From: an uncultured archaeon
GTDB taxonomy: Archaea; Iainarchaeota; Iainarchaeia; Iainarchaeales; VGJJ01
DNA: 64,000 bases
Assembly: GCA_964480125.1 (NCBI GenBank)
Contig: CAYZNV010000001.1
Span: 3,736-67,735 of the forward strand
Direction of reading: 5' to 3'
Position 1 is the first letter of the stretch. Each line of letters begins with the position of its first letter. Below the pieces are notes generated by a model, which ran no database searches, was not told the origin of the DNA, and worked only from the letters and a program-made list of their open reading frames with translations. The translations under genes and the position numbers were made by a program. Positions 6,212 to 47,302 of the stretch are shown here, in pieces.

Positions 6212-7447
6212 TCAACGGATTTCCGCTGCCCCCCATCCTACAAGGAAAACAGCCACGGGAGCAGAGGCCACTAATTCTTTTTCCTGCATTGGTTCTAAGA
6301 TCTCACTCCCTATCCTAATACGCGGCGCCTGATGCACAAAAATCTTCCGTTCTTTTTCTCCCGAAAAAGCAATGGCATCCGAGAAGGGATCGAATTGCTC
6401 CCATGTCTCCAACGAAAGCGATTTGGCAACAAAACCAGTCGAACCATGAACCGTATCGGGAACGCGGAGCAGCTTGTAGATGTCCCCCGACGTAGAACGA
6501 TCGATCGGCAAGCGCAACCGTTCCGCAATAGAAGAAAGAATACCATTCCAGAACAGCTCTGTTTTCGTGCTTTTTCCAGGAACAGCAGGAAGCGTGCCGT
6601 GCTGCAGCTCATTGTACATGCGCTGCCGGTTCTCCAAGAATGACTTGAGCGCGCGCATGGGCATTCCCGTGAGAATGAACCATTCCTCTTCCGTCCCCAC
6701 TTCCACGAGGCGAAGGATTTCTTGCATCACTCGCTGCGCATTCCCCTTTGCTTGAGCAAAATGAGGACAACGGAATTGTTTTCCATCAAAAACAAATCCA
6801 AGCGAAGGCCAATCCAGTTCATGCAACGAAAGATAATCCATCAACTCGATGCGCGCATGCTTCTGCAATGAAAAAATTTCTTTTTGGCGAACGTGGACGT
6901 GAAAGCCCTTGCTGCCGGAAAAATTCACATGCAAACCATTCAACTGAAAATCATCCTGGAGAATCTTAATGAGTTGTTTTGTTTTTTCTTTTGTGGCATG
7001 CAAGCAAACATCACACGTCCACTCGTCCAAGTCCACTCCCTTTCCGCATGAGGTGCATTTGAGCAAGTGCCCTTTTCCTTGCGCACCGCAATGCGTGCAC
7101 TTCCACGAGTCATGGGTCTGCTTGCAATCGGTCTGCAGATCGTCCGCATCAAACTCATAAATCAAATCACTCCCTAACCATTGTTTTTTCTCCATGGGTT
7201 GCGCGGAAGGAAACGCATACTCCGAGATGCTCCCCGAAAAATACAATGGAAGGTTGTTGCGCAGGTATTGATTCATTTCCTGCACGCTCTCAAAGCCCAC
7301 GTGACGTGAATCTATTTTCTTGATGTTACCAAAACCAAATTCTCTCTTGGAGACATCATAAGGAGGAACGACGAGGTGCGCGGCATAATACTTGCGCAAT
7401 AGCCCCTTCAACCATAATGATTCATTTTGCCCAATGCCCATCCGCAT
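6212..7447 (-). CDS. priS: DNA primase small (catalytic) subunit PriS
   Basis: LIYEFDADD catalytic acidic motif. Zinc knuckle CKQTHDSWKCTHCG...CTSCGKG...CDVCLH. Conserved REFGF and YFSGS. Start taken at MRMGIG; the track ORF extends 15 codons further. Confidence 0.8.
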   Translation of the reverse strand: MRMGIGQNESLWLKGLLRKYYAAHLVVPPYDVSKREFGFGNIKKIDSRHVGFESVQEMNQYLRNNLPLYFSGSISEYAFPSAQPMEKKQWLGSDLIYEFDADDLQTDCKQTHDSWKCTHCGAQGKGHLLKCTSCGKGVDLDEWTCDVCLHATKEKTKQLIKILQDDFQLNGLHVNFSGSKGFHVHVRQKEIFSLQKHARIELMDYLSLHELDWPSLGFVFDGKQFRCPHFAQAKGNAQRVMQEILRLVEVGTEEEWFILTGMPMRALKSFLENRQRMYNELQHGTLPAVPGKSTKTELFWNGILSSIAERLRLPIDRSTSGDIYKLLRVPDTVHGSTGFVAKSLSLETWEQFDPFSDAIAFSGEKERKIFVHQAPRIRIGSEILEPMQEKELVASAPVAVFLVGWGAAEIR

Positions 7448-7578
7448 CCCCTTCCAATCCCAGTGCCCACATTTCGTGTAATGATTATGCATTACCCTCC
7501 CCGCGGCATTATAACCATACTTTTTCTTTCGCCAAGAATTGCCATGCTTTTAAAGCCAGGAATCTTTCTCCCCCTGTT

Positions 7579-10254
7579 ATGCCCGAGTTCTATCAGCAGC
7601 CCATCGACGAGGTGCTGCGCGGATTGAAAACCAGCACGAATGGGCTCAGCACCACCGAGGCCCAACGCCGACTCGGCATCTATGGCAAGAACAAAATCGC
7701 CGTGGAAAAAAAAATCAACGTCATAGGAATGCTCATCGGACAATTCACCGAGCTCCTGGTCCTCATACTCATCATCGCGGGAATACTCTCTGCGCTGTTC
7801 GGGGACATTACTGACACCATTGCTATTTTCGCCATTGTCATACTGAATGGAGTGCTAGGATTCCTGCAAGAATACAAAGCCGAAAAAGCCATCGAGGCAC
7901 TCAAAAAAATGGGCGCGCTAAAGGCGACGGTGCGACGCGATGGAAAATTGGTTGAAGTCGAAGCTGAGGACGTGGTGCCAGGAGACGTAGTGGTATTAGA
8001 AGAAGGAACCAAACTCCCCGCCGACGTGCGCTTTCTCGAAGTCGTGGATGCGGAAGTGGACGAAGCCATTCTGACGGGAGAATCCCACTCCGTGTCGAAG
8101 AACTTGGACGTGCTGACGGGAATGAAAGCCGTCGCGGACCGCAAGAACATGGGATTCGCCAACACCTCGATTGTGCGCGGGCGCGGCGTCGGAGTAGTCG
8201 TGGGGACGGGAATGCAGACCGAGTTCGGAAAAATCGCCAAGTCATTGGAAGAAATCCAAGATGAAGAATCTCCATTGAAGAAACAACTCGAAGTACTGGC
8301 GCGACAGCTCACCATTGGAGTGGTGGGAATCATTGCACTTCTTTTCATCATCGGATTCGTCATCGAACAACGACCGTTTGTGGAGATGTTCCTGCTCGCA
8401 ATCTCGCTAGGAGTCGCCGCCATCCCCGAAGGACTGCCGGCGATTACGACGATTACGCTTGCGCTCGGAATCCAACAAATGGCCAAAAAAAATGCCCTCG
8501 TGAAACACCTTCCATCGGTGGAGACGCTGGGAAGCACCACTGTCATTTGCTCCGACAAAACCGGAACGCTCACCAAGAACGAAATGACCGTTGAATACGT
8601 GTACGCGGACGAACGCCTCGTGCAAGTGACAGGAGTAGGATATTCTGCGCAAGGACAATTACAATGGAATAATCAACCCATTGCGTTGGACGAGGACACT
8701 ACTGAAGGAATGCAACGCACCATCGAGAATGGAATGTACTGCAACAACGCGGAATACAATCCCAAAACCGAAAGCATGATTGGGGACCCCACCGAAGGAT
8801 GTATGCTCGTGCTCGCACACAAAGCACGCGTGCAATCTCTTTCCAAGCGCGTGCGCGAAATACCATTTTCCTCCGAGAGAAAGCGCATGAGCGTGGTCGT
8901 GCAGCTATCCGAGAGAAATTATCGCGTGTACAGCAAAGGAGCCATTGAAAAAATAATGGAATCATGCACCTATGCATTAGAGCATGGGAAACGAATCCCA
9001 TTGACGCAAGTCAAGAAAAACCAATTCCTGCAGCAGGCCGAGACATTATCAAAAGCCGCTTATCGCGTGTTGGCATTCGCATACAAGGATGCCAGTAGCG
9101 CAGAAGGAGAAATGGAAAACAACCTCATCTTGACAGGACTCATGGCGCTACGCGATCCCCCACGCGAAGAAGTCAAGCAAGCCATTGCATTATGCCTGCA
9201 GGCAGGGATTACCGTAAAGATGGTCACGGGAGATAACCCCATTACTGCGCAAGCGATTGCCCAAAAGCTAGGAATGAATGGAAAGGTCATCACGGGAATG
9301 GAACTCAATTCCCTCTCTGAACAAGAATTCCAGCAAGCCGCGACAACTTATTCGGTCTTCGCGCGCGTGGACCCCGAACACAAATACAAAATCGTTCAAG
9401 CGCTGCAAAAAAAAGGTGAGATTGTCGCCGTCACAGGGGACGGAGTCAACGATGCCCCTGCTCTGAAGAAAGCCGACATCGGAATTGCCATGGGAATCAA
9501 GGGAACGGACGTCGCAAAAGAAGCATCCGATGTCGTGCTGAAAGATGATAACTTTGCCACGCTCGTGAATGCAGTCGAGCAGGGAAGAACCATCTATCAA
9601 AATCTCCAAGGGTTCGTGCGCTATTTGTTGGCAGCGAATCTGGGGGAGGTCATGATTGTTTCATTAGGATTCTTCTTGAAATCAGGAGAAATCCTTTCCC
9701 CCATCCAGTTGCTGTGGATCAACCTCGTCACGGATGCACTTCCCGCGCTCGCGCTAGGAGAAGACCCCCCATCCAAGGATGTGATGCAACGCAAGCCCCG
9801 TGATCCACGCGCAGGAATACTCAACCAAATGCCCTCATTCATCATCCTCGCAGGAATCGCGAGCACCATTGTGACGTTCGCGGCATATTTCTATGGACTG
9901 CAGACGAGCCAAGTGTATGCACAAACCATGGCATTCACCGCGCTCGTGGTATTCGAGCTCATGCTCGTGTTCAATTCACGCCAACAAGGAAAGAGCTGGC
10001 TGCAAGTATCTCCATTCAACAATATCTGGCTCGTCATCGCCGTCATCGTTTCTTTTTCCGTTCAGCTATTAGCGTTATACACCCCCTTGCTGCAGGGCAT
10101 CCTACAAACCGTCCCATTGAATGCAGAGGACTGGCTCGTCATCGCGGGAATGAGCTTCATCGCCGCCACGCTCATCCCCTACTTGAATGCCGTGTGGCTG
10201 CGATTCCATCACAACGAAAAACTCGACGCCACGCAGGGCATTCCACTCATGTGA
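7579..10254 (+). CDS. P-type ATPase, type II (SERCA-like cation-transporting, probably Ca2+)
   Basis: CSDKTGTLT phosphorylation motif, PEGLPA, TGDN and GDGVNDAPAL motifs, 10-TM topology. Start set at MPEFYQQ (7579); the track ORF has a 54-codon upstream extension overlapping priS. Confidence 0.9.
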   Translation: MPEFYQQPIDEVLRGLKTSTNGLSTTEAQRRLGIYGKNKIAVEKKINVIGMLIGQFTELLVLILIIAGILSALFGDITDTIAIFAIVILNGVLGFLQEYKAEKAIEALKKMGALKATVRRDGKLVEVEAEDVVPGDVVVLEEGTKLPADVRFLEVVDAEVDEAILTGESHSVSKNLDVLTGMKAVADRKNMGFANTSIVRGRGVGVVVGTGMQTEFGKIAKSLEEIQDEESPLKKQLEVLARQLTIGVVGIIALLFIIGFVIEQRPFVEMFLLAISLGVAAIPEGLPAITTITLALGIQQMAKKNALVKHLPSVETLGSTTVICSDKTGTLTKNEMTVEYVYADERLVQVTGVGYSAQGQLQWNNQPIALDEDTTEGMQRTIENGMYCNNAEYNPKTESMIGDPTEGCMLVLAHKARVQSLSKRVREIPFSSERKRMSVVVQLSERNYRVYSKGAIEKIMESCTYALEHGKRIPLTQVKKNQFLQQAETLSKAAYRVLAFAYKDASSAEGEMENNLILTGLMALRDPPREEVKQAIALCLQAGITVKMVTGDNPITAQAIAQKLGMNGKVITGMELNSLSEQEFQQAATTYSVFARVDPEHKYKIVQALQKKGEIVAVTGDGVNDAPALKKADIGIAMGIKGTDVAKEASDVVLKDDNFATLVNAVEQGRTIYQNLQGFVRYLLAANLGEVMIVSLGFFLKSGEILSPIQLLWINLVTDALPALALGEDPPSKDVMQRKPRDPRAGILNQMPSFIILAGIASTIVTFAAYFYGLQTSQVYAQTMAFTALVVFELMLVFNSRQQGKSWLQVSPFNNIWLVIAVIVSFSVQLLALYTPLLQGILQTVPLNAEDWLVIAGMSFIAATLIPYLNAVWLRFHHNEKLDATQGIPLM

Positions 10255-33983: not shown

Positions 33984-34014
33984 TTAAGGGCATTTCCTTG
34001 GATGCATCTAGTGT

Positions 34015-34503
34015 ATGGCCTTTACTTTCCGTCGCACCACGCGCGTTTCATCCAGCGTCGTTACTGCTAATCAGCCGGACGCCTGCCACGTGTTCATGAA
34101 TCACTTGCGCAGAGAATCCAGCGCCACGGGAAACCGACAGGGAATGGGAAAAGCATTGCGGGAAATCTATCGCATCGCGGGAAGACAGTCATTCTTCGAG
34201 CGCTTGCTGAATCGCAATCCCACTATTCGCGTGGGAAACGGAACTATTACCAAATCCCAACTCAAAAAAATAGAACATTTACTTGCGCGCGAGGGATTTG
34301 AAACCACCCTCATGCATATTTCAACGCCACACCCCATGCTCGCGGACTTATTCCAAGACAAAGAACAATACGCCGAGTTCGTTGCCCAAATACCCGAAAA
34401 GAAATGGCAACAAGTATTGGCGCCATTCGTTGCACATCCTAACCAGCAGCTGCGCGCGATGGCATTATTGGTATTCTTGCAGAATGCGCGCGGGACGAAA
34501 TAA
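34015..34503 (+). CDS. Hypothetical protein
   Basis: 162-aa ORF. Only weak evidence. Confidence 0.3.
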   Translation: MAFTFRRTTRVSSSVVTANQPDACHVFMNHLRRESSATGNRQGMGKALREIYRIAGRQSFFERLLNRNPTIRVGNGTITKSQLKKIEHLLAREGFETTLMHISTPHPMLADLFQDKEQYAEFVAQIPEKKWQQVLAPFVAHPNQQLRAMALLVFLQNARGTK

Positions 34504-34535
34504 TTTCAGTATTTACAATACAATCCAAAAAAGCT

Positions 34536-34955
34536 TTATGCTGCGGATTGACCAGTACAATGAAAAATAATTTCTGAATTTTCGACTACTACTGCAGTAT
34601 AACCAACTGTGCCCAACTCTTTATCTTTGAATTTACCTGCAAATAAAACTTGATTAATTTCCCCAAGATACGCACACCCACTTCCGCCACACTCATTACT
34701 GTAATGCTGAAATTTTTTATCATCATGGGATATAACTGACAAGAATGTTTCACTTCCATCTGCTAATATTTTGAACTCATCTGAATTAACTGAACTCAAA
34801 CTTGCCCCAACCCATTCTGTGCACATAAAATCAGTAGTACTAATGTTACTAGCAGGGGATGGCCCAATAGTCACTCCAAAAAACCAAAATAAAAATAATC
34901 CAATACTAAGAAACAAAACTATGATTGACCAGTTTAGTTTAGTTTTTTTAGTCAT
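34536..34955 (-). CDS. Small secreted/anchored Cys-containing protein
   Basis: N-terminal signal anchor IIVLFLSIGLFLFWFFGV. First gene of the secreted island. Confidence 0.45.
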   Translation of the reverse strand: MTKKTKLNWSIIVLFLSIGLFLFWFFGVTIGPSPASNISTTDFMCTEWVGASLSSVNSDEFKILADGSETFLSVISHDDKKFQHYSNECGGSGCAYLGEINQVLFAGKFKDKELGTVGYTAVVVENSEIIFHCTGQSAA

Positions 34956-35008
34956 GCCAATTCACTCCCAACTTGCAAGTGTATGAACTACTGTTAATAA
35001 ACGCAAAA

Positions 35009-35359
35009 TTATCGTAGTATTCCTTGCATTACACCAATAGGTTGAAGTGTGGCCAAATAAAATCCTAGAACAATTAACAAAAAAATGACGACCGGTTTAG
35101 CTTGGCTTTTTCCAAAAATCTTGCTAGAGATCTCAAATAAATTTAAGCCAAGTATCGAACCTAAGCCAATCATTAATCCGCCAATCATATTTACTACAAA
35201 ACTGTCCGCAGAAAAGAAAATTGTGGAATTAGGATTTTGAGCATCACTAATCGTTTGAGAGTACCACCCATAACTAGAATAAATGTAATATATACCAAGA
35301 AGTAAAAGAATGCCAAAAATTATTTTGTATGCAGTGCTATTCGCCATGTAAAACCCCAC
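35009..35359 (-). CDS. Small membrane protein
   Basis: 116 aa, 3 TM helices. The stop overlaps the start region of the metalloprotease gene. Confidence 0.4.
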   Translation of the reverse strand: MGFYMANSTAYKIIFGILLLLGIYYIYSSYGWYSQTISDAQNPNSTIFFSADSFVVNMIGGLMIGLGSILGLNLFEISSKIFGKSQAKPVVIFLLIVLGFYLATLQPIGVMQGILR

Positions 35360-38066
35360 CTAATTGACATATATAATTATTACTCATAATCCGACCAACT
35401 GGTTGCGGTAAAAGAGCATAGCTGGTTGAATAGTTTGAACTTGATACCTCCCCACCAGCATAACCCAAACTATATTGAATAGTAACTAAAAGATGGCTGA
35501 TATCATAAGATAGCACATTATTCTGATTTCTATCAACGATATTAACAACATCTACGTCTTGGAAATATGGAATTGCAAGAGCAAAGTTCCTGTCACTTGT
35601 AACAAGCGAATTGGCTTCAGGTAAAATGGAGCCATTACTATCATGAAGTGGCGCCCCTAAAATTCCAATTGGCGGGCTGTAGTTATAATCATACAAGAGG
35701 TTGCCATCACTTGATTTAAGTTGAATTGAATAATTTGCATCATCCGATTGAGGAATCTCTCCAGCAATACCAGGAACAAGCGATGCAGCCAACACAGTCA
35801 TTTGACCATCCTTTTGCATAATGGAAAGAACGAATGTGTAAAAATCCTTAATGAGTGGAGATGTAGGTGGATAAAAAGTAATGTCGGCTAGTAGCTCATT
35901 TTCATTTACTTGGCCAAATTCATGACGCGGATTGAAATGACTACCCATTAATGTATTGGTATCATACGCTCGATACCAAGAATCGAAATAACAGGGTGAA
36001 AAACAACCTGTGCCTGGAATTGAAGACCATTTTGAACAAACAGGCGATTCAGTACAATTCGCCAATGTACCTGCCGATACGTTCGTAGTGTTACCCGTCC
36101 AATATTCATCCCACAATCCGCCAAAACTATGACCAAACTCGTGACTAAAAACGCGTTGTAACTCATCTATATTATCTGCTATACCAAAACATCCAGCTGT
36201 TCCGCTTCCATTACAGTCTGGATTTGAAAGATTAACATCTACTGGAAAATTACATGTTCCTGCAAATTCACATCCTAATAGTACATAATTCATATGCGTT
36301 CCATTACTTGTAATATTTCGTAAAAAGTCAACTTCTGGGGGCAAACTATACGATCCAAAGCGCGGAGTTAATGAAAGAAGTGAAAATTCATTTCCAAAGG
36401 GACAAACTTCTTTGGCACGGCCATTTACTATTGCATTGTTAAAATGGCCAGAACCGTCTAATTGATAGGCATTGTATTCATCTACCATCCAGACGTTGAA
36501 TTTTGTTTTATTTGATTTAAATGGTTCAAAGGAAAATAGACCATTTTGATCGCTACTGTAATTAATAACATAATTTATTGCGTATTCGAATTGGTTTTTA
36601 TCTTCAAATCCACTTCCAATGAAAACCAAATCAATTTTTTGAGACGGTTCACCGTTATTGATTACTTGTCGACACAGAGTATTATCAGAAAATCTGGGAC
36701 TGTAATATCTGAAATTATCTAATGCGACAACGGAGTAAGTGGAAGTCACATAGATACTGCCGCTCTGGTTTGGAATGATAAAATTAATATCATTCTGGAC
36801 AGGCAAACTCGAGAGCAACCCCCCATAGATTTGAGTATCAGGCGACCCATCGCTGGGATCAAAATAAATCCTGAACGTACAATTAGCTGGATTAAAGTGA
36901 TTACAGCTCTTGTGAATAACGTCAAAGAACATTCTCCCACCATTCATTGTGTAACTTGAACGCAATGAATCGGAAGTCGTAGTACTATCCCCCATTGCCA
37001 CAAAAAAACGACCATCATCCACATACATATGATTGGGGATTTTTTCACGAACAAACTTAACAACGCCACTAGCCACCGTCCAACCACTAGGAGGAGTCTG
37101 AGTATACCCCAGCGTACCACCCATCGTGTAAACTCCGCCATACGTGTCCGGAATAACTCCCTCAAATGAACCGCTTAGAATTGCAGTATGACGATTCACA
37201 TGAACAGTATTTTGACCATACAAATCACGATTGGAAACTCCATCACACGAAACATAATAACTCACATCCCGAGAATCACCGCTAGTAATGTCCAACGAGA
37301 TATTGCCTGTACGATAGATTTCATTCCCAACATAAGAAGTAGAATGCGATAAATTATCTGTTTCATTGAACACCGTGCAAGTAGCCCCAGAGGGATAATT
37401 TACATCAATCGTAAAAGACTCTCCTGCTTCAATATGGTCTACAAAAGGACTAGAATCATTATCAACTAACAAGGGATAACGCTGAAAGCGAAAATTATCC
37501 AACGCGAAATTAACTAACGTAAATGTTCCTCCAGAACGAAATGCCGCAAGCGAGAATCGACCATCAACATTGGGAAAATTGACGTCGTATGTTTGTTTTG
37601 GGCTCGCATTGGTCAACACCAAGACAGTGAATGAATCTGCTTTATTCGCATCTACTGGATTGTAGTTGAGTCTCAGTTGAGAAGTACTATTCCAAAAGCT
37701 GCTATTTCCGATTCCATTCAAATCAAATAATATTCTTCCAGCCCTAAAGATATCGGGGTGAGATAATACGGTGAAGTTATTGCTGGTGGTACTCGTAGTC
37801 CCACACACAAAAATATTTCCGTCAGTTGGATAGCTCCCTGCATTGCGATCAAAATAACGAATGTGTGTGCCACCAACACTTTCACCATCAACCCAAGTCG
37901 AAACCGTTTCACAAAAAGGCTTATTGGAAACCAAACTCCCGCAGCTTTCAGCGCTAGCCGTTGAACATGACTCAAATGAACCATTTGTGATTAATGGATA
38001 TGGCTGGGCAAAAGCACTGGAAGAAAAAATAAAGATGAATAAGAAAAATAACCAATAACCCTTCAT
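35337..38066 (-). CDS. Large secreted zinc metalloprotease (HExxHxxGxxD type; M64/snapalysin-like motif)
   Basis: Signal peptide MKGYWLFFLFIFIFSSSAFAQ. VFSHEFGHSFGGLWDEY zinc-binding motif. 909 aa, rich in N-x-S/T sequons, with predicted beta-rich repeats. Confidence 0.7.
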   Translation of the reverse strand: MKGYWLFFLFIFIFSSSAFAQPYPLITNGSFESCSTASAESCGSLVSNKPFCETVSTWVDGESVGGTHIRYFDRNAGSYPTDGNIFVCGTTSTTSNNFTVLSHPDIFRAGRILFDLNGIGNSSFWNSTSQLRLNYNPVDANKADSFTVLVLTNASPKQTYDVNFPNVDGRFSLAAFRSGGTFTLVNFALDNFRFQRYPLLVDNDSSPFVDHIEAGESFTIDVNYPSGATCTVFNETDNLSHSTSYVGNEIYRTGNISLDITSGDSRDVSYYVSCDGVSNRDLYGQNTVHVNRHTAILSGSFEGVIPDTYGGVYTMGGTLGYTQTPPSGWTVASGVVKFVREKIPNHMYVDDGRFFVAMGDSTTTSDSLRSSYTMNGGRMFFDVIHKSCNHFNPANCTFRIYFDPSDGSPDTQIYGGLLSSLPVQNDINFIIPNQSGSIYVTSTYSVVALDNFRYYSPRFSDNTLCRQVINNGEPSQKIDLVFIGSGFEDKNQFEYAINYVINYSSDQNGLFSFEPFKSNKTKFNVWMVDEYNAYQLDGSGHFNNAIVNGRAKEVCPFGNEFSLLSLTPRFGSYSLPPEVDFLRNITSNGTHMNYVLLGCEFAGTCNFPVDVNLSNPDCNGSGTAGCFGIADNIDELQRVFSHEFGHSFGGLWDEYWTGNTTNVSAGTLANCTESPVCSKWSSIPGTGCFSPCYFDSWYRAYDTNTLMGSHFNPRHEFGQVNENELLADITFYPPTSPLIKDFYTFVLSIMQKDGQMTVLAASLVPGIAGEIPQSDDANYSIQLKSSDGNLLYDYNYSPPIGILGAPLHDSNGSILPEANSLVTSDRNFALAIPYFQDVDVVNIVDRNQNNVLSYDISHLLVTIQYSLGYAGGEVSSSNYSTSYALLPQPVGRIMSNNYICQLGGVLHGE

Positions 38067-38884
38067 GCAACCACCTTCTCAATAGAGGGTCTTGCGACAT
38101 AGCACGCAAGCAATAGCAACCCCATTAGTCCAAACAATAGCATTCCCTCGTTTTTTTCGAGAGTGATTCCGGGAATGATTTGAGAAGAGCCATTGTAATC
38201 CAAATTCCCGCGCACGCTGATGATATGCGGAGAAGCAGAGGAATTATAGAAACGCACATTCGTGTCCACTAACGAATGATGCGTGCCGGCTTGGATAACA
38301 TAATTATCATTAACCATTACTTCATTGTCATGAAACAAGCAATCGGCATCAAAACCAAAATCACCCATAGGATTAGGAAAGCACAAATCACTCGAATAGG
38401 TGTGCAACTTGACCTGCTTCGAAATCTGATTTAAACCAGGATTCTGCCCCTCACGAAAACCACACGCAATCGAATGAGTCACATCCGCAACACTCGTAAG
38501 AGACTGAGAAAAAGACTTATCCTCGTTCGGGCGACCAGGAGTGGCGCACCAAGCACCGCTACAATCAATATCCACCCCACTCGTTTGAGGAACTTGACTC
38601 AAAACGTTAAAATCGCCATTCTGAAAAACATTTGTCATCCAAACCCCATAACAATTCAAGTCCCCCTGCGAACAAGAACAACTCGTACTGGGCGCAGGAT
38701 CAAACGACCATTTACACGTCACAGTAACAGTATCCCCCGCAAGCACGCCATAATCCACATCCGTATATTGGACTAGGCCACCACCGCTAAGGCTGATATT
38801 GATATCAGGCACACTACACGTACCCGCAAAAACTCCCATTGAAAAAAACAAGAGGAAAATAGCAATCAAGAAAAAACGAATCAT
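38063..38884 (-). CDS. Secreted cysteine-rich protein with C-terminal TM anchor
   Basis: Signal peptide MIRFFLIAIFLLFFSMGVFAG. About 14 Cys. C-terminal LLFGLMGLLLLACYV anchor. Overlaps neighbouring genes by 4 nt. Confidence 0.5.
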   Translation of the reverse strand: MIRFFLIAIFLLFFSMGVFAGTCSVPDINISLSGGGLVQYTDVDYGVLAGDTVTVTCKWSFDPAPSTSCSCSQGDLNCYGVWMTNVFQNGDFNVLSQVPQTSGVDIDCSGAWCATPGRPNEDKSFSQSLTSVADVTHSIACGFREGQNPGLNQISKQVKLHTYSSDLCFPNPMGDFGFDADCLFHDNEVMVNDNYVIQAGTHHSLVDTNVRFYNSSASPHIISVRGNLDYNGSSQIIPGITLEKNEGMLLFGLMGLLLLACYVARPSIEKVVA

Positions 38885-39660
38885 GGGAGAAGACCCCCAT
38901 TCTGCTGATCGGAAATCAGGGCACACAAAGCTAGGGCAGTTGCATGCGACGACGTAACATTACGCGAGACATCAAAATCACTCGACCAACCCCCATCCAA
39001 CTGCTGATACGAATAAATTTCATCACGCTGCGCAGAAGTCAAAGGAACCCCATACAAGCCCAACACACAAAAACGCTCTAATTTTTCATCAAGCGTCGGG
39101 GCAGCAGGTTGCGCAGATAATTCCTGGACTTTTGATTGAGTCAGCGCAGCCAATTCAGGAGCAGTTGCGTTCGCGTTCGGACATTGCGCATATAGGTGCA
39201 ATAACAGCAAGGCATGCTCATCATTGTAATTACCAAACTCCTCTGCAGGGTTATCCGAGTAACCACCAAGTGAAGCAATCACCTCATTCGTCAAAGGCTC
39301 GCATGAAAACGCACGAGCATAACCCAGATTGTATTTGAGATTTGTTTCAAATTCGCTAAGCTCACTCACCAAAATAGGCTCGCCAAGCACCCATTTCCTC
39401 CACATTGCGTGCTTGGAATCCAATAACTCCACACGCTGAACGGCTTTCTGCTTGAATTGATAGTTGGGTGCGATAGAGTCAAGTATTGCAATGACCGAAA
39501 TGTCAGTGGCGTCATAGTTTTCCTGCGAATCAAGAAAAGCAACTCCATTGTTAACGGCCGTTTGGAGCTGCTCATTCGCAACGAGCTGCGCATGCACCCC
39601 AAAGCCTGCGAATAAAAGGATTGCAAGCCCTATGCCGATGGCTATGAATTCCCGATTCAT
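38881..39660 (-). CDS. Secreted protein with prenyltransferase/terpene-cyclase-like (QxxDGGW) repeat
   Basis: Signal peptide MNREFIAIGIGLAILLFAGFGVHA. YQQLDGGWSS resembles the squalene-cyclase/prenyltransferase alpha-toroid repeat. Confidence 0.45.
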   Translation of the reverse strand: MNREFIAIGIGLAILLFAGFGVHAQLVANEQLQTAVNNGVAFLDSQENYDATDISVIAILDSIAPNYQFKQKAVQRVELLDSKHAMWRKWVLGEPILVSELSEFETNLKYNLGYARAFSCEPLTNEVIASLGGYSDNPAEEFGNYNDEHALLLLHLYAQCPNANATAPELAALTQSKVQELSAQPAAPTLDEKLERFCVLGLYGVPLTSAQRDEIYSYQQLDGGWSSDFDVSRNVTSSHATALALCALISDQQNGGLLP

Positions 39661-39661
39661 A

Positions 39662-40321
39662 CTAGCAGTTCACCTGGATGTTGATTGCGTTATTGACATC
39701 ATCCCAATAGATGCGACCACAACCTAGCTGAATATCTCCCCCCACATTCAAATCATTGCGGACTTGAAGATAGTTCACGTCTAAGGGGGTTGACACATTC
39801 CCATCGAATAGTTGCTCTGAATGCACTTCTCCTTGGCCGCCGCGGAAGGTTTGAGGACCCGAAAGCTGCTCCCCATTCACATAGAGGCACATAAAATAGT
39901 CCTGATTGAAATTGAGCTTCAGCAAATCATTCTGATCCCCTAACAATAAATTGAACGCCCCGTCTTGGATGACATTAAAATAATTATAATCGAAGAAAAT
40001 TTTTTGAGTGCAAGAACTGATATCGCTAATCTTCACGCCCAAATTACCATCATCAATGGGGGTGTTATTGAAATCAGTAACTTTCCCTTGGAGACTCATC
40101 TTGGTGGGAATGGAATTGTGCGCGATATCCGTATAGCCGGAACTCACTGCAGAATCAAATCGCTCGAATTGCGAAGGAGAAGAGGAGGAAAGAGAGCGCG
40201 AAGAAGAGGAAATATCAAACAGCGACGGGATTGGACTTACCCACGCATGCAAAAGAAAACCTACACCAAAAGCCACAATGGCTAAACCAATAATAAATAC
40301 TTTTTCCATCCCAACCCACAC
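39662..40321 (-). CDS. Secreted hypothetical protein
   Basis: Signal peptide MEKVFIIGLAIVAFGVGFLL followed by a Ser-rich linker. Confidence 0.45.
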   Translation of the reverse strand: MWVGMEKVFIIGLAIVAFGVGFLLHAWVSPIPSLFDISSSSRSLSSSSPSQFERFDSAVSSGYTDIAHNSIPTKMSLQGKVTDFNNTPIDDGNLGVKISDISSCTQKIFFDYNYFNVIQDGAFNLLLGDQNDLLKLNFNQDYFMCLYVNGEQLSGPQTFRGGQGEVHSEQLFDGNVSTPLDVNYLQVRNDLNVGGDIQLGCGRIYWDDVNNAINIQVNC

Positions 40322-40414: not shown

Positions 40415-41899
40415 TCACCCACCAAAGAAACTATTCAAGGACGTCTGCTTCTTTTTTTGAGTGGATTCTTCTTTTTCTTCCATTGCTGCGGCGATTGACT
40501 CTTTTGCGCCTGCTTTTATGCGCTTGGATTTTGTTTTGGATTCAGATTCTGTTTCCACTGCAAGCGGAATAGAAGAAGTAACGTCTTCGCTTGCCGTGTG
40601 AGCGCGGATTTCCCCTCCGCGATGCGCACGCGGAGCAAGACGTTCTTTTAATTCTGCAACCTTGAGCATGAATTTTTTTATTCTAACAGAATCCGCGCTC
40701 GTGTCGAACAAATACGCCATATCATCTTCGTCCAACTCATAATACGCTGCAACGGATTCAGCGAATGCAGGATTTTCCACTAACATCTCCCAATACCCCA
40801 TTTCTTTTCCCCAGCGAGACTTGGAAGAATGAGACTTTTCAGCAATCTTTGTAACGATTACCTTTTTCTGCGAATCCCGCTTCATCGCGAGCTGCTTTAG
40901 AATAGTGGGAAACTGATAGGGAATGAAACCATGCGCACGCTCGCTTGTTTTGAGGCCAACGGTTGAGACTAACTCCCCGGAATAGCGCAAAAAACCATAA
41001 TGCTGTCTTCTAAAAATACGCCCATCAAAGATATCCCCACGCGAAAGCTGATCGAATGCAATGGCTTGCGATTCGAGCTGTGGAAACTGACGCGGAATAT
41101 TTTCTTCTACCCATTTTTTCATCAAATCATGATCCATATCCAACGTAAAGCGCGCGCGACGGATTTCGGAAAGCGAAGTAGAGGTGTAAAGGGTTCGAAT
41201 GACGTTGAAGATATTATCTACACGCTCGCGATAGCCGCTGCGCTCCACATCTTCCAACGTGAGCTTCTTTCCCTTGTTGGAGAGCGTCTCCAAATCCATC
41301 AGGGCCGCACGACAATCCCCTCCGGAGTTTTTAGCAAGTAATTGGATGGAACGCGCATCATAATCAATGCCTTCCTTATCCGCAATATCTCCTAACCACT
41401 TTCCAATGCTGGGAAAAGGAACTTTTTTGAATTGCACAATCTTAGCAAAACTTCTTACGCTTGCGAGCTTCTTGTCCGCATAAATGTCGTTCGCCGTGAG
41501 GATGAGTGGGTTCTGCGCGTGGCGCATGATTTCGAGCAACGCGGAAAGGCCTCCCTTGTCTTCTCTTCCATGAATGGCGTCAATCTCATCAATCAACACC
41601 AATCGACGCTTGCCATCAAAGCCACTATTGTATGCTGCGCCTGCGATTGATTTCTCCATAGACTCTTTATCGCGCACGTCCGAGGCATTGAACTCTACGA
41701 GGGTCCAACCGAATTCTTTCGCACACGCATACGCAGTAGCGGTTTTTCCCACTCCGGGAGCGCCCGCGAGAAGAAGGGGCTTCTGGTTCTTTCCCTGCTG
41801 CCAGGCCTGCGCCCACATGCGCACTTCCGCGATGCAGTCGGAATTCCCAATGACTTCCTGCAGGGAAGAAGGAACATACTTGTCGATGAACATAGGCAT
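40415..41899 (-). CDS. rfcL: Replication factor C large subunit (RfcL) with C-terminal PIP box
   Basis: AAA+ Walker A GAPGVGKT. LVLIDEID Walker B. C-terminal Q-T-S-L-N-S-F-F fits the PCNA-interacting-peptide consensus. Confidence 0.85.
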   Translation of the reverse strand: MPMFIDKYVPSSLQEVIGNSDCIAEVRMWAQAWQQGKNQKPLLLAGAPGVGKTATAYACAKEFGWTLVEFNASDVRDKESMEKSIAGAAYNSGFDGKRRLVLIDEIDAIHGREDKGGLSALLEIMRHAQNPLILTANDIYADKKLASVRSFAKIVQFKKVPFPSIGKWLGDIADKEGIDYDARSIQLLAKNSGGDCRAALMDLETLSNKGKKLTLEDVERSGYRERVDNIFNVIRTLYTSTSLSEIRRARFTLDMDHDLMKKWVEENIPRQFPQLESQAIAFDQLSRGDIFDGRIFRRQHYGFLRYSGELVSTVGLKTSERAHGFIPYQFPTILKQLAMKRDSQKKVIVTKIAEKSHSSKSRWGKEMGYWEMLVENPAFAESVAAYYELDEDDMAYLFDTSADSVRIKKFMLKVAELKERLAPRAHRGGEIRAHTASEDVTSSIPLAVETESESKTKSKRIKAGAKESIAAAMEEKEESTQKKKQTSLNSFFGG

Positions 41900-41928: not shown

Positions 41929-42312
41929 ATGGCCGAGCCACGAAGAAAACAACGCGCGCGACAAACAGCGCCTTTGCGCCTCAATCGATTGCCCGTGCGG
42001 AGACCGCCCCTGCGCATCGTGCAGCGACCCATTACTAGCAGTCCCAAAGCCGTGGCAGGGCATCGTGTCACGAATATCGTGCAATTCAAGAGCAAGAGCA
42101 CGGGAAGATATCTCGTCGCGGTTTATACCCAAAATCCACGCACCAAAAAAGAAGAACGCGTGATTGTGGATCCCAAAACACTTTCAACGGAAAAATTAAA
42201 CCAACTCAAAGCATGGCATGCCCACCACAAATCAAAAGGAAGCTGGGTCCACGCCATCGCCACGGACCCACACACCTGGGCGACGATTGGAAAAATATTA
42301 TTAGCGGGATAA
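41929..42312 (+). CDS. Hypothetical basic protein (doubtful)
   Basis: 127-aa ORF in an otherwise empty 490-bp gap. Composite element C begins 13 nt after its stop. Confidence 0.25.
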   Translation: MAEPRRKQRARQTAPLRLNRLPVRRPPLRIVQRPITSSPKAVAGHRVTNIVQFKSKSTGRYLVAVYTQNPRTKKEERVIVDPKTLSTEKLNQLKAWHAHHKSKGSWVHAIATDPHTWATIGKILLAG

Positions 42313-42387: not shown

Positions 42388-42759
42388 CTAGAGGAATTCC
42401 ACATCCCCAGTGGACTTTCCCTTTAATGATTTCAAGCGCTCCGCCAGCTGTTGCGCGCCGGCATTGCTGGGAACTAATTTGGGAGTAGAAGGCGCGCCAC
42501 TATTACTAGGAAGCAACCCACTCAACCCCCCTGCAGAGGCTGCTGAAGCAGAAGTGGAAGGAGACGGATTTGCAGAAGGCAAACCCATTGCAGGAGCAGC
42601 ACCCCCACGATAGCGCTTTCGCACTTCATTGATGCGATCCATGCTCCCATGGTCCATGGGACCCAAATAGTTGCAGCGGCGACACTTATCCCCGGCTTGC
42701 GCGGGAGAGATTTCCATCCCTCCACATTGTGGGCAGAATTTCAGTTGCATGGCATCCAC
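42388..42759 (-). CDS. Zinc-ribbon protein with long A/S/P-rich linker
   Basis: CPQCG...CRRC ribbon at the N-terminus. 16 nt downstream of the Lys-rich repeat gene. Confidence 0.5.
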   Translation of the reverse strand: MDAMQLKFCPQCGGMEISPAQAGDKCRRCNYLGPMDHGSMDRINEVRKRYRGGAAPAMGLPSANPSPSTSASAASAGGLSGLLPSNSGAPSTPKLVPSNAGAQQLAERLKSLKGKSTGDVEFL

Positions 42760-42775
42760 ATCCTCAGCATTACAC

Positions 42776-43975
42776 TTATTCTCTCATCGAAGGAAAGAGC
42801 TGGGCTTTGCTTTCTCCACCGAGCTTACTCTCTTCTTTCTCCACGATACGGCGCATGACTTCCAATTCCTTCTCGCGATGCTTCAAGCGCTGCAAGCAAT
42901 AGAAGTAGGCGTTGATGATGGAATCAAAGTCCAAGCTGCGTTTGAAACCCAAGCGCGCAATTTCCTCAAAATAGAGTTTAACGAGTTGTGCTGCCACTTG
43001 CTCGTCTGGCATACCACGATCTGCAACCATTTCCATCACCTTCTGCGTGTGCGATGACACTTTCTCTGAAACTAAACGCGAATCCGACTTGGAATCGGAA
43101 CGAACACTACTCGACTGCACGTGCGAGGAAGCGGACTTACTCATGTCCTTCTCCATCGCATGCATCTCATCCTTAATCGCAGAGAGTTCGCGACGAACCG
43201 CATTCATTTGCGTATTGCTGTTCACGCTGCCCAAAATCTCTTTTTTGAGAGACTCTAGCTGCTGCGCGGTCTTGGTGTCTGTTGCGGGAATGCGCTTGAT
43301 GATGGTGCGCGTCTTCACGACGGGAACATTCTTCACAATCGTGCGCGTTTTTGTCACGGGAACACGCTTGATGATGGTTTTCGTTTTGGTAATGGTGCGC
43401 GTCTTCACATTAGAGCGCGCCGCATCGGGATTCTCCAAAATCTTCTTGGATTTCTTCCATTGCGAAACGGCTTCCTCAAATGTCTTACCGCTTCGGATCT
43501 GCTGGCGCACGAAGAGATTGTACATGGATAACTCTCTCTTCTCCACGGGCTTCTTGCGATTGGTCTTCAAACCCGTAATGGCTTCCTTCAATTTCTCCAA
43601 TTCGGATTTGATTTCGGTATTTTGGGTTGAAAGTTTTTTCGTGGAAGACTGCAAGGACTTCGAGAGACGCTTATTTCCCTTAGAAACATTTTCCTTGACA
43701 TCCTGCACGTCCGATTTCACGGATTTCACTTGCTTCGAGACACCCTTGTTCACGGCCTTTGCGGCTTTCGTCGCGGACTTTACCGCTTTCGTCTGTTCAG
43801 CTACATTTGTCTTGACCGCTTGCACGTCCGATTTCACGGACTTCACTTGACGCGTGACACCCGATTTCACTTCTTGAACATCGGACTTCACACCCTTCAA
43901 TTGCTTTCGGATGACCTTTCCCGCAACTTTACCGGGTTTCTTATCCGCTTTTTTAGCCATAATGAGACACTCCAC
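42776..43975 (-). CDS. Lysine-rich tandem-repeat protein with HMG-box-like motif (candidate nucleic-acid/chromatin-binding protein)
   Basis: 11-aa VKSVKSDVQxVK repeats and 12-aa KTRTI[IV]K[RN][VI]P repeats, both visible as DNA repeats. Central KRELSMYNLFVRQQIRSGKTFEEAVSQWKKS resembles HMG-box helix 1/2. Coiled-coil segments. Confidence 0.55.
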   Translation of the reverse strand: MECLIMAKKADKKPGKVAGKVIRKQLKGVKSDVQEVKSGVTRQVKSVKSDVQAVKTNVAEQTKAVKSATKAAKAVNKGVSKQVKSVKSDVQDVKENVSKGNKRLSKSLQSSTKKLSTQNTEIKSELEKLKEAITGLKTNRKKPVEKRELSMYNLFVRQQIRSGKTFEEAVSQWKKSKKILENPDAARSNVKTRTITKTKTIIKRVPVTKTRTIVKNVPVVKTRTIIKRIPATDTKTAQQLESLKKEILGSVNSNTQMNAVRRELSAIKDEMHAMEKDMSKSASSHVQSSSVRSDSKSDSRLVSEKVSSHTQKVMEMVADRGMPDEQVAAQLVKLYFEEIARLGFKRSLDFDSIINAYFYCLQRLKHREKELEVMRRIVEKEESKLGGESKAQLFPSMRE

Positions 43976-44048
43976 CTAATGCAGGAATAAGCGCCTCGCA
44001 GGTTTAAAAGAAATAGCTTAAAATGCCCCAGAATACCCAATCAGAGAT

Positions 44049-44669
44049 ATGCCATCCCCCCGAGGAAGACCGAATCCAAAGGTGCACCTGGAACATCAAG
44101 TTGGGACAATAGAACGCAAAAGAGTCAAAAGTTATGGTAATTTGGGAATTGAATCGGTAGTGATTCCGCGCACGCGCATCAGTGAGCTCATAGCCGAATG
44201 GATAGAAAGCCAACCAAAAAAAGCAGTTCTTGTCCCACTTCCTGGAAGCAAGCATAAACGATTGGTGCTCACACCCGCAGGGAGATATGATTTAGCTACA
44301 TTCCACCCCATCTCCAAAAAAATAGGAGAACTAACCGAATCCCAAAAACAACGCTATGCCAAACGATTTATCCTCCGAGCGCGGCAAGAAAGCCGACGCG
44401 ACAGCGTCCTGCGGAGATCGCATGTCAGGCAAGGGCAGCTTGGACCCAAAAGCTACTCGTGGAAAAAAATATTGGAGGATAAAATGAAATTCGCCCAATC
44501 TATGCAACGCGTCGTCGAAATGAATGCACGCACATTCGAACGAAGAATGCCGGATGGAAAAATGGGAGAGGTATTGGAAGCCGAAGTGCGACGCACTATC
44601 CAAGGATGGAAAAACCTCGCAGACATGCTCAAATATACAATTGAACAGTACGGAAATAAGGTGGAGTAA
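44049..44669 (+). CDS. Hypothetical basic protein
   Basis: 206 aa, Arg/Lys-rich. The stop overlaps the start of a zinc-ribbon miniprotein. Confidence 0.45.
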   Translation: MPSPRGRPNPKVHLEHQVGTIERKRVKSYGNLGIESVVIPRTRISELIAEWIESQPKKAVLVPLPGSKHKRLVLTPAGRYDLATFHPISKKIGELTESQKQRYAKRFILRARQESRRDSVLRRSHVRQGQLGPKSYSWKKILEDKMKFAQSMQRVVEMNARTFERRMPDGKMGEVLEAEVRRTIQGWKNLADMLKYTIEQYGNKVE

Positions 44670-46183: not shown

Positions 46184-47302
46184 TTACTTCAACGCATCCT
46201 CGGGAAGCAAAACAGTAATATTTTTGGTGCGGCCCCTTCCTGAAGTGTCGGTTTCGGTGCGGAGCAATTTCTTTACTTCTAATTCAACGACAATCTCTCT
46301 CACTCTTCTATCGCTCAACTCAAAACCCATTCGAGCCATTTGCCCATACAACGCGTTCGAGGGAATGTTTTTCCCACCGAGCTTGAAGAGAGCCTGCAAG
46401 ACTTGCTTCTGGGGAATCTGCAAGAAAGGAACGGCACGCATCACCGCAATCACTTCACGGTCCTCAAATGCCTCTTTCGCGTGCTCCACTTCAATTTTAT
46501 TCGCGTTCTTGCGCTCGGCAATCTTACCGGCTTTCAGCAGGGCATCCAATCCCTTCCGACAATCTCCCCCATGCTTGGCCGCGTGGCCGGCAATAAGAGA
46601 AATAATATCCTCCGAAATCGCATCCGGGTGCATCGCCATCTTCGCACGTTCGCGAAGGATATCCTTCAATTGTGGCGGCGCATATTGTGGAAATTCCACC
46701 GCCTCATGAGAAAAAGAACTACGAACGCGATCATCGAGCTTGCTAGGGATGCTAGTGTCATTGGAAATGAGAATAATAGGAATGGCCTTCCTCCCATGCT
46801 CGGGCAAGCGAAGCAAATCATACAATAACTCATTCCCATCATTCGCGAGCAGCTGATCGAACTCATCAAACACTAAAACAGGAACAAACGAAGCAAACTT
46901 CATCCCTTCCAATACTTTCGCATACAACTCATTCGTGCTCATTCCCCGCGCAGGAACGGGGCGCTCAACGACACGCGTTAACTCCGCAAGAACGGCTTGG
47001 CGAGAATTCAGGGCAAAACAATTAATGTAAACCGGCTTCACGCGCGCAGAAAAATCCTTCAACTGCTGCATCACAAACTTCAGCGTGACCGTCTTTCCCG
47101 TGCCAGGGGGACCAAACACAAAAACGTGCGAGGCATTCCCTCCCTCTGCAAGGGGCTTCAGCGCATATACGAGGGTTTGGATCTGCGTATCGCGGTGGGG
47201 AAGCACCTCGGGGAGATATTCGGGAGAGAGGGCCCGCTCATCCTTGAAAATAGCATGCTCCTTGGAAGCGCGCGCAAACACATTATCCTTCATCATGCAC
47301 AT
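46184..47302 (-). CDS. orc1: Orc1/Cdc6 replication initiator
   Basis: Walker [16 protein letters not shown] Walker B. C-terminal winged helix ...GRGRTKNITV. Confidence 0.9.
   Translation of the reverse strand: MCMMKDNVFARASKEHAIFKDERALSPEYLPEVLPHRDTQIQTLVYALKPLAEGGNASHVFVFGPPGTGKTVTLKFVMQQLKDFSARVKPVYINCFALNSRQAVLAELTRVVERPVPARGMSTNELYAKVLEGMKFASFVPVLVFDEFDQLLANDGNELLYDLLRLPEHGRKAIPIILISNDTSIPSKLDDRVRSSFSHEAVEFPQYAPPQLKDILRERAKMAMHPDAISEDIISLIAGHAAKHGGDCRKGLDALLKAGKIAERKNANKIEVEHAKEAFEDREVIAVMRAVPFLQIPQKQVLQALFKLGGKNIPSNALYGQMARMGFELSDRRVREIVVELEVKKLLRTETDTSGRGRTKNITVLLPEDALK

Follow-up and report, generated by a model that had tools for sequence, protein, structure and literature searches.

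What is the function of the lysine-rich, repeat-bearing protein encoded between the orc1/cdc6 and RFC large subunit genes of an uncultured archaeon of the Iainarchaeota? The gene lies on the minus strand of a 64,000-nt stretch of contig CAYZNV010000001.1 (the window; positions are counted from its first nucleotide). The source organism is close to ‘Candidatus Iainarchaeum archaeon’ CP064981, with tblastn identities of 95% for Orc1 and 84% for the protein studied here. An earlier note, made from the sequence alone, described a 399-codon open reading frame (ORF) with two repeat systems and a segment resembling an HMG box, next to a zinc-ribbon gene. We find that the ORF belongs to a genuine, conserved, unannotated family, with two newly found features that the note had missed: a phylum-wide linkage to orc1/cdc6, and a C-terminal domain that defines the family. 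We propose, with a probability of roughly 45%, that the product is an architectural DNA-binding protein peculiar to this lineage, with helices and a C-terminal domain that serve for oligomerisation or docking, and with a function in chromosome organisation or replication.

The mechanical ORF call covers 42776..43975 on the minus strand and starts from GTG 43975. The true start is probably ATG 43960, since public data hold an identical 394-aa protein (P0001) and the aligned homologues all begin MAKK or MAxK. The gene thus likely spans 42776..43960 (stop codon 42776-42778), and its product begins MAKK. This 394-aa protein is modular and strongly cationic. Its net charge is +43, to which an N-terminal helix contributes +25 and a 46-aa repeat region +12, the C-terminal domain being neutral. 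It has one Cys, and no transmembrane segment or signal peptide was found in it.

A search of 5.8 billion proteins returned 47 homologues (P0001 and 46 others), with E values from 1e-231 to 1e-10 and identities down to 29%. All are annotated only as “hypothetical protein”, and all come from Iainarchaeum or Diapherotrites metagenome-assembled genomes (MAGs). The lysine-rich ORF is therefore real, and the lack of homologues outside this genome that would have marked it as spurious was not observed. A GTDB scan with one genome per species gave 71 family loci, whose named records are mostly Iainarchaeum or Diapherotrites MAGs, including AR10 (CP010424) and Forterrea; the labels Micrarchaeota and Thaumarchaeota occur on a single record each. 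By these searches, essentially all of the family appears to be confined to Iainarchaeota (Diapherotrites, DPANN).

The family has a characteristic genomic position. We counted neighbours by tblastn of the window's neighbouring genes against the 71 species-level loci. The orc1/cdc6 gene, which in the window occupies 46184..47302 (minus strand; Pfam Cdc6_lid and AAA, and synteny), is found upstream in the same orientation in 66 of the 71 loci. In 40 loci the first family gene starts no more than 150 nt from orc1, a number that rises to 46 at 300 nt; the median gap is 116 nt. Further downstream, at a median of ~2 kb past the family genes, 56 loci carry the RFC large subunit gene, again on that strand. 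The usual order, seen in 36 loci, is orc1, then a long protein with hairpins and the C-terminal domain (C-domain), then a small protein consisting of the C-domain alone. These stand-alone paralogues are ~90–115 aa long and directly follow the long protein (for example, at 7356-7697 of locus L004). In 15 of the 71 loci the small gene alone follows orc1, and hence the small protein may be the ancestral or core component. In the window's own clade, one to three opposite-strand genes are usually inserted after orc1. The C-domain and orc1 adjacency are the constant elements of the family. The window's orc1 is preceded by no direct repeats and by only weak inverted repeats, and the GC skew does not switch inside the window; we located no origin near orc1.

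Lineage-wide conservation beside an orc gene has a parallel in haloarchaea, where oapABC is conserved next to orc/cdc6 and the origin (PMC7002104). The two cases differ in that there is no sequence relationship, and oapABC is divergent across the origin whereas the Iainarchaeota family is co-directional and downstream of orc1. Despite its name (origin-associated protein), OapA, a small GTPase, proved to drive the formation of vesicles (PMC10927574), which counsels caution in deducing function from position alone. Could the linkage be nothing more than gene order passed on by descent? In that case the protein would be evolving fast, largely disordered, specific to the lineage and without a nucleic-acid role, and its motif likenesses would be convergent. 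The OapA precedent is relevant here, no module has a significant database match, and about half of the protein is predicted to be a single helix or disordered. However, the adjacency persists where Orc1 identity to the window falls to ~40%, while the intervening and flanking genes differ. Moreover, the alignments show strong constraint on both the hairpin and the C-domain, in which aromatic and glycine positions do not vary. We consider this explanation quite improbable.

Which parts of the protein might act on DNA? The second most conserved block of the family alignment is KRxLSxYNLFxRxQxxxGKTFxxAVxxWK, surpassed only by the C-terminal block EEVAxRLxxLYFEEIARLGFKRxLDxDxIINAYxYxLxRL. The former falls within residues 138–182 (43415..43549, minus strand), a module delimited by conservation, hhalign, Pfam and PDB matches, and a full-length AlphaFold2 (AF2) model built with a 46-sequence alignment. 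In the model, a basic strand (KKPVEKR) leads into a helix at residues 146–156 (SMYNLFVRQQI), a turn at Gly158 and a second helix at 161–176 (TFEEAVSQWKKSKKIL). This strand and helical hairpin together span 35 aa (residues ~141–176), with a predicted local distance difference test score (pLDDT) of ~92. A six-residue helix (178–183) follows, and then disorder. Proteins of the family carry one to three copies of the hairpin. Across 88 non-redundant copies the Y, G and W are invariant, the N and F are nearly so, and a K/R-rich strand precedes the motif, giving the signature K/R-x-L-S-x-Y-N-x-F ... G ... W.

The segment flagged as HMG-like, KRELSMYNLFVRQQIRSGKTFEEAVSQWKKS, is present in the protein as stated, and it resembles two HMG-clan domains. 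With HMG boxes (HMG_box and HMG_box_2, especially TFAM box B) it shares the basic N-terminal strand, helix 1 with S-x-Y-N-x-[FY] (RSAYNVYV in TFAM box B), the conserved Trp in helix 2 and a basic context; hhalign aligns the strand and the aromatic core (Tyr/Phe in helix 1, Trp in helix 2) with both HMG and YABBY. The plant YABBY domain (PF04690) is likewise a two-helix (helix-loop-helix) HMG-like module, and second hairpin copies in distant relatives read KRRPSAYNQFI against YABBY PSAYNRFI in helix 1, and AVxxWK against AAKNWA in helix 2. With target alignments entered by hand rather than taken from curated profiles, hhalign gave the hairpin a probability of 94.7–95.4% against YABBY (P ~2–6e-8), spanning both helices with a 10-residue gap, and 83–87% against HMG boxes, where the alignment ends after helix 1. 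The scores of 35.7 (YABBY) and 30.2 (HMG) compare with 19.5 and 21.1 for the best of 200 column shuffles, ~8 for reversed profiles and 39.4 for the accepted YABBY–HMG relationship.

Searches of Pfam with single motif copies lead to the same families. Among 20 copies, YABBY was matched by five (best E 0.011) and HMG_box_2 by four (best E 0.012), and these were the sole recurring families among the weak matches, all of which fell under the cut-offs. YABBY matches of motif copies range from E 4.7e-4 to 0.05, the strongest coming from a tandem hairpin pair of a distant relative (E 4.7e-4), and score at most 20.9 bits against a cut-off of 28.6 bits. The best single-motif score for HMG_box_2, also from a distant relative, is 15.9 bits against 22.4 bits; hence neither the window protein nor the best motif copy attains the HMG-box gathering score. 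When all PDB sequences were searched with the 88-copy profile, the HMG box B region of TFAM was the only non-artefact family (E 0.044–0.19), matched over the basic strand and helix 1. Matches to polyubiquitin in that search were discarded as an artefact of 2-bit matches summed over tandem repeats.

The likeness has clear bounds. Only ~16–20 residues match HMG boxes, which are eukaryotic whereas the present host is an archaeon, and the distance from Tyr to Trp is ~8 residues shorter in the hairpin. The L-shaped HMG fold of three helices and ~70–75 residues is not seen in the AF2 model, whose helices here are 146–156, 161–176 and 178–183; because the long third helix is absent, the hairpin as modelled is not a bona fide HMG box. 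Alignment to YABBY deletes 10 residues in helix 1 and the loop. There is no N-terminal C2C2 zinc finger in the same polypeptide, and a CxxC pair is missing from all 192 family proteins scanned; a zinc ribbon is instead encoded by the next gene, in this clade only, and both architecture and lineage are unlike those of YABBY proteins. The window protein's own hairpin copy has no YABBY or HMG match in Pfam, only DUF7527 at E 0.054, and the full protein has no HMG match there at E<=1. No HMG structure was matched by Foldseek in the PDB. The hairpin profile, used to search for homologous proteins, recovered a single fragment of the same family, and a motif scan of viral contigs found no relatives. 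Our literature search returned nothing combining HMG-box with DPANN or archaea with YABBY, and nothing mentioning DUF7527. What remains of the HMG-like segment as first described is a specific likeness to HMG-clan domains, without a full box, without helix 3 and with scores under the cut-offs. We suggest that the hairpin is a minimal two-helix HMG/YABBY-like module, whose likeness is specific and reproducible, if below threshold, and could reflect homology or convergence.

If it reflects homology, the hairpin would be a genuine prokaryotic relative of the HMG box and YABBY, in a minimal two-helix form that is either ancestral or laterally acquired, and the protein with its paralogue would be an Orc1/Cdc6 partner that bends or bridges origin DNA. 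We regard this as doubtful. HMG-box proteins are considered to have arisen in eukaryotes, and YABBY in plants. Were the homology reading true, the family would be an archaeal counterpart of HMG-type architectural factors, acting beside histones in replication initiation.

The basic repeats that follow the hairpin (KTRTIxKxVPxx; 43277..43414, minus strand) have a net charge of +12, and AF2 predicts disorder over residues 187–228 (pLDDT <50). In the protein, identity at lag 12 is 53%, compared with 14% in shuffles (z = 6.7), corresponding to ~3.5 units. In the DNA, a 36-nt family recurs in three to four copies at 43275-43387 and 43386-43408 with 61–91% identity. The 12-aa repeat proposed from the sequence alone, in about four copies, therefore holds at both levels. 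So does the prediction that repeat copy number varies between relatives: in the family alignment the number of basic repeats differs among homologues, and the N-terminal expansion described below is missing from most. The hairpin and the basic repeats are likely the nucleic-acid-binding parts of the protein.

Is the nucleic acid RNA rather than DNA? The protein might be a basic component of the ribosome or another ribonucleoprotein, its Lys-rich helices and KTRT repeats binding structured RNA and its HMG likeness being coincidental. Its high K+R content and disordered basic repeats are like those of ribosomal-protein extensions and RNA chaperones, and every HMG-clan score is under threshold. 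Nonetheless, the weak matches point specifically to DNA-binding HMG-clan domains, no RNA-binding family was found in Pfam or NCBIfam, the neighbours are genes for replication and not translation, and there are no RNA genes in the window. An RNA-associated role therefore seems unlikely.

The region preceding the hairpin is a cationic amphipathic helix at residues 17–136 (43553..43912, minus strand), modelled by AF2 as one long helix. It is a clade-specific expansion of units containing VKSDVQxVK, a motif present in three copies. Identity peaks in this region fall at lags of 18 (z 7.5), 39 (z 6.5) and 7 residues (z 5.0), and lag 11 is outside the top six. Hydrophobic periodicity is 3.6 residues and very strong (power 150 against a shuffle mean of ~10, the mean being measured at periods 3.5 and 3.667), whereas at 3.667 residues the power is 5.8 (p = 0.57). 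Behind the repeat lies duplicated DNA at 43686..43870, recovered by a DNA repeat search: a single 68-nt pair with 81% identity, its copies 117 nt (39 aa) apart, and a 21-nt tandem of two between them. The N-terminus had been described as about five 11-aa units clear as near-identical DNA repeats. Neither the unit length nor the near-identical arrays are borne out. We also reject 11-mer amphipathic repeats of the LEA or apolipoprotein type, suggested on the same grounds, because there is no lag-11 peak and no hydrophobic periodicity of 3.667 residues.

A helix of 120 residues with such strong periodicity raises the possibility of a structural or membrane-surface protein. The helix could lie on lipid, as in phasins, apolipoproteins or LEA-like proteins, or form a coiled-coil scaffold for division or the cytoskeleton, with the C-domain as an adaptor. 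Weak matches to coiled-coil families (adhesin stalks, Lpp and ZorA) would fit, as would P0046 and P0047, two relatives that join the C-domain to a prefoldin-like coiled coil. We find this very doubtful: the long helix is clade-specific and missing from most family members, the 11-residue periodicity of LEA and apolipoprotein repeats is not found, no transmembrane segment or signal peptide is present, and what is conserved is the hairpin, the basic repeats and the C-domain.

The remainder of the protein consists of a helical segment at residues 229–276 (43133..43276, minus strand), predicted as a short coiled coil with AF2 helices at 229–242 and 248–276; a Ser-rich flexible linker at residues 277–312 (43025..43132), variable in the family alignment and with pLDDT <50 at residues 276–307; and the C-domain (42779..43024). 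The latter, with consensus EEVAxxLxxLYFEEIARLGFKRxLDxDxIINAYxYxLxRL, is the most conserved block of the alignment. A separate AF2 model of residues 298–394, built with 85 sequences, shows three helices with a core pLDDT of ~97. An exhaustive search of 1.84 billion cluster representatives with a C-domain profile found only 175 proteins at E<=1e-3. Many of these are stand-alone domains of 60–130 aa, and many others carry the hairpin in one to three copies together with basic repeats and one or two C-domains. The C-domain has no match in Pfam, NCBIfam, the PDB or fold searches; the full protein gives only coiled-coil noise under the cut-offs in Pfam, NCBIfam and PDB sequences, and Foldseek with the full AF2 model has no PDB hit at E<=0.001. 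The C-domain is, as judged by these searches, a new domain without known relatives. We rejected the idea that it is an MIT three-helix bundle binding a MIM1-like tail of the zinc-ribbon protein (hhalign probability 0.3%, no Pfam or fold hits). The fusions in P0046 and P0047, which also carry a C-terminal motif, FSYTNxKGxxYFLHxRGKLYYFSKDP, and have no hairpin, suggest that the C-domain is a mobile module in other architectures.

How might an architectural DNA-binding protein built from these parts work? We propose that the hairpin and its flanking basic repeats would bind DNA with little sequence specificity, probably by contacting the minor groove and bending the DNA, in the manner of HMG-type proteins. 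Oligomerisation, or docking on a partner, would fall to the long helices and C-domain; candidate partners are Orc1/Cdc6, the stand-alone paralogue and, in this clade, the zinc-ribbon protein. The protein could then act as a bridging chromatin protein beside histones, plausibly at or near replication origins. Diapherotrites encode histones (PMC6136690), which makes an accessory role plausible. The suggested link to replication is one of gene position only.

Several observations weigh against this proposal. No HMG or YABBY match reaches its curated cut-off, most matches cover the basic strand and helix 1 only, and the hhalign comparisons used target alignments entered by hand. The hairpin is 8–10 residues shorter than HMG and YABBY domains between the conserved Tyr and Trp and is without helix 3, and the full model has no Foldseek match at E<=0.001. 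RNA binding also occurs among basic low-complexity proteins. No origin recognition box (ORB)-like repeats are present next to orc1, and no 11-mers recur upstream of orc1 in related loci. Conservation beside orc genes without a role in replication is possible, by analogy with OapA and vesicle formation. Finally, the Iainarchaeota hosts are uncultivated, and DNA binding is a prediction.

Placed after orc1/cdc6 in almost all genomes of the Iainarchaeota, archaea whose genomes are very reduced, the family is an obvious candidate for a replication or chromosome-organisation factor that is specific to the lineage and has so far been missing. An HMG-like hairpin in a histone-bearing DPANN phylum would also bear on the origin of architectural DNA binders. 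The C-domain, having no Pfam, NCBIfam or structural relatives, would merit definition as a family. Even if the replication link fails, the family is a clean phylum marker and a tractable target in vitro.

The gene immediately downstream encodes a 120-aa zinc-ribbon protein (42388..42750, minus strand; ORF 42388..42759 from GTG) with CPQC...CRRC knuckles, an A/S/P linker and a conserved C-terminal tail, ELAERLKSLKGKSTGDVEFL. The ribbon and linker are as first described. The intergenic gap of 16 nt given with them, which is measured from GTG 42759, probably gives way to one of 25 nt, since homologues back a start at ATG 42750. The two genes are likely co-transcribed, because there is no T-run between them and T-runs follow the second. 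Their pairing is conserved in the close clade and not family-wide: all 15 members of the zinc-ribbon family belong to the window's clade, the gene is present in about 14 of the 71 loci, and the long protein and zinc ribbon occur together in 12. In this clade it occupies the slot held by the stand-alone C-domain paralogue in other lineages. The ribbon scores 22.3 bits against PF02150 (RPB9/TFIIS-type; E 1.2e-4), under the 25.2-bit cut-off, and 15.4 bits against NCBIfam TFS_arch, under 64.75 bits. Within the zinc-ribbon family, conservation is highest in the extreme C-terminal tail, which lies after the variable linker at 42391-42450 (minus strand) and looks like a docking peptide for a partner. 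We take its core, LxxRLxxLK, to be like the MIM1 motif of ESCRT-III tails.

Candidate expression signals for the 394-aa protein, read directly from the sequence, are an archaeal TATA box, TTTTAAA, at 44003..44009 (minus strand), 43 nt upstream of ATG 43960, and a Shine–Dalgarno-like GGTGGA at 43971-43976. Across the whole window there are no tRNA genes, and no Rfam family reaches its gathering threshold. The RFC large subunit gene (40415..41899, minus strand; Pfam AAA, Rad17 and RFC lid) ends in a PIP-box-like QTSLNSFF; its C-terminus, encoded at 40415-40460 (minus strand) and ending KKKQTSLNSFFGG, contains a canonical-looking PCNA-interacting (PIP) box, QxxLxxFF.

Two plus-strand ORFs flank the gene pair. 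The one at 44049-44669 is divergently transcribed and encodes 206 aa, for which neither Pfam nor NCBIfam gives a match. The ORF at the corresponding position in CP064981 is only ~30% identical, compared with 72–95% for the flanking genes, so that this is a strikingly fast-evolving gene in a conserved slot. The other, at 41929-42312, runs towards the zinc-ribbon gene and encodes 127 aa, Arg-rich at the N-terminus. A genuine small gene is probable here, because ORFs with similarly Arg-rich N-termini hold the same position in L002 (4752-5192, minus strand) and L003 (7511-7921, minus strand); tblastn at E<=1e-4 gave no link among them. Further along, the region at ~34000-40300 has a GC content of ~39–45%, against ~48% in the rest of the window. 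The match of its 909-aa ORF to Peptidase_M64 is fragmentary, and three further ORFs there have none. The region sits between the RFC large subunit and ornithine decarboxylase genes, which are nearly adjacent in L002 and L003, and is likely an inserted island.

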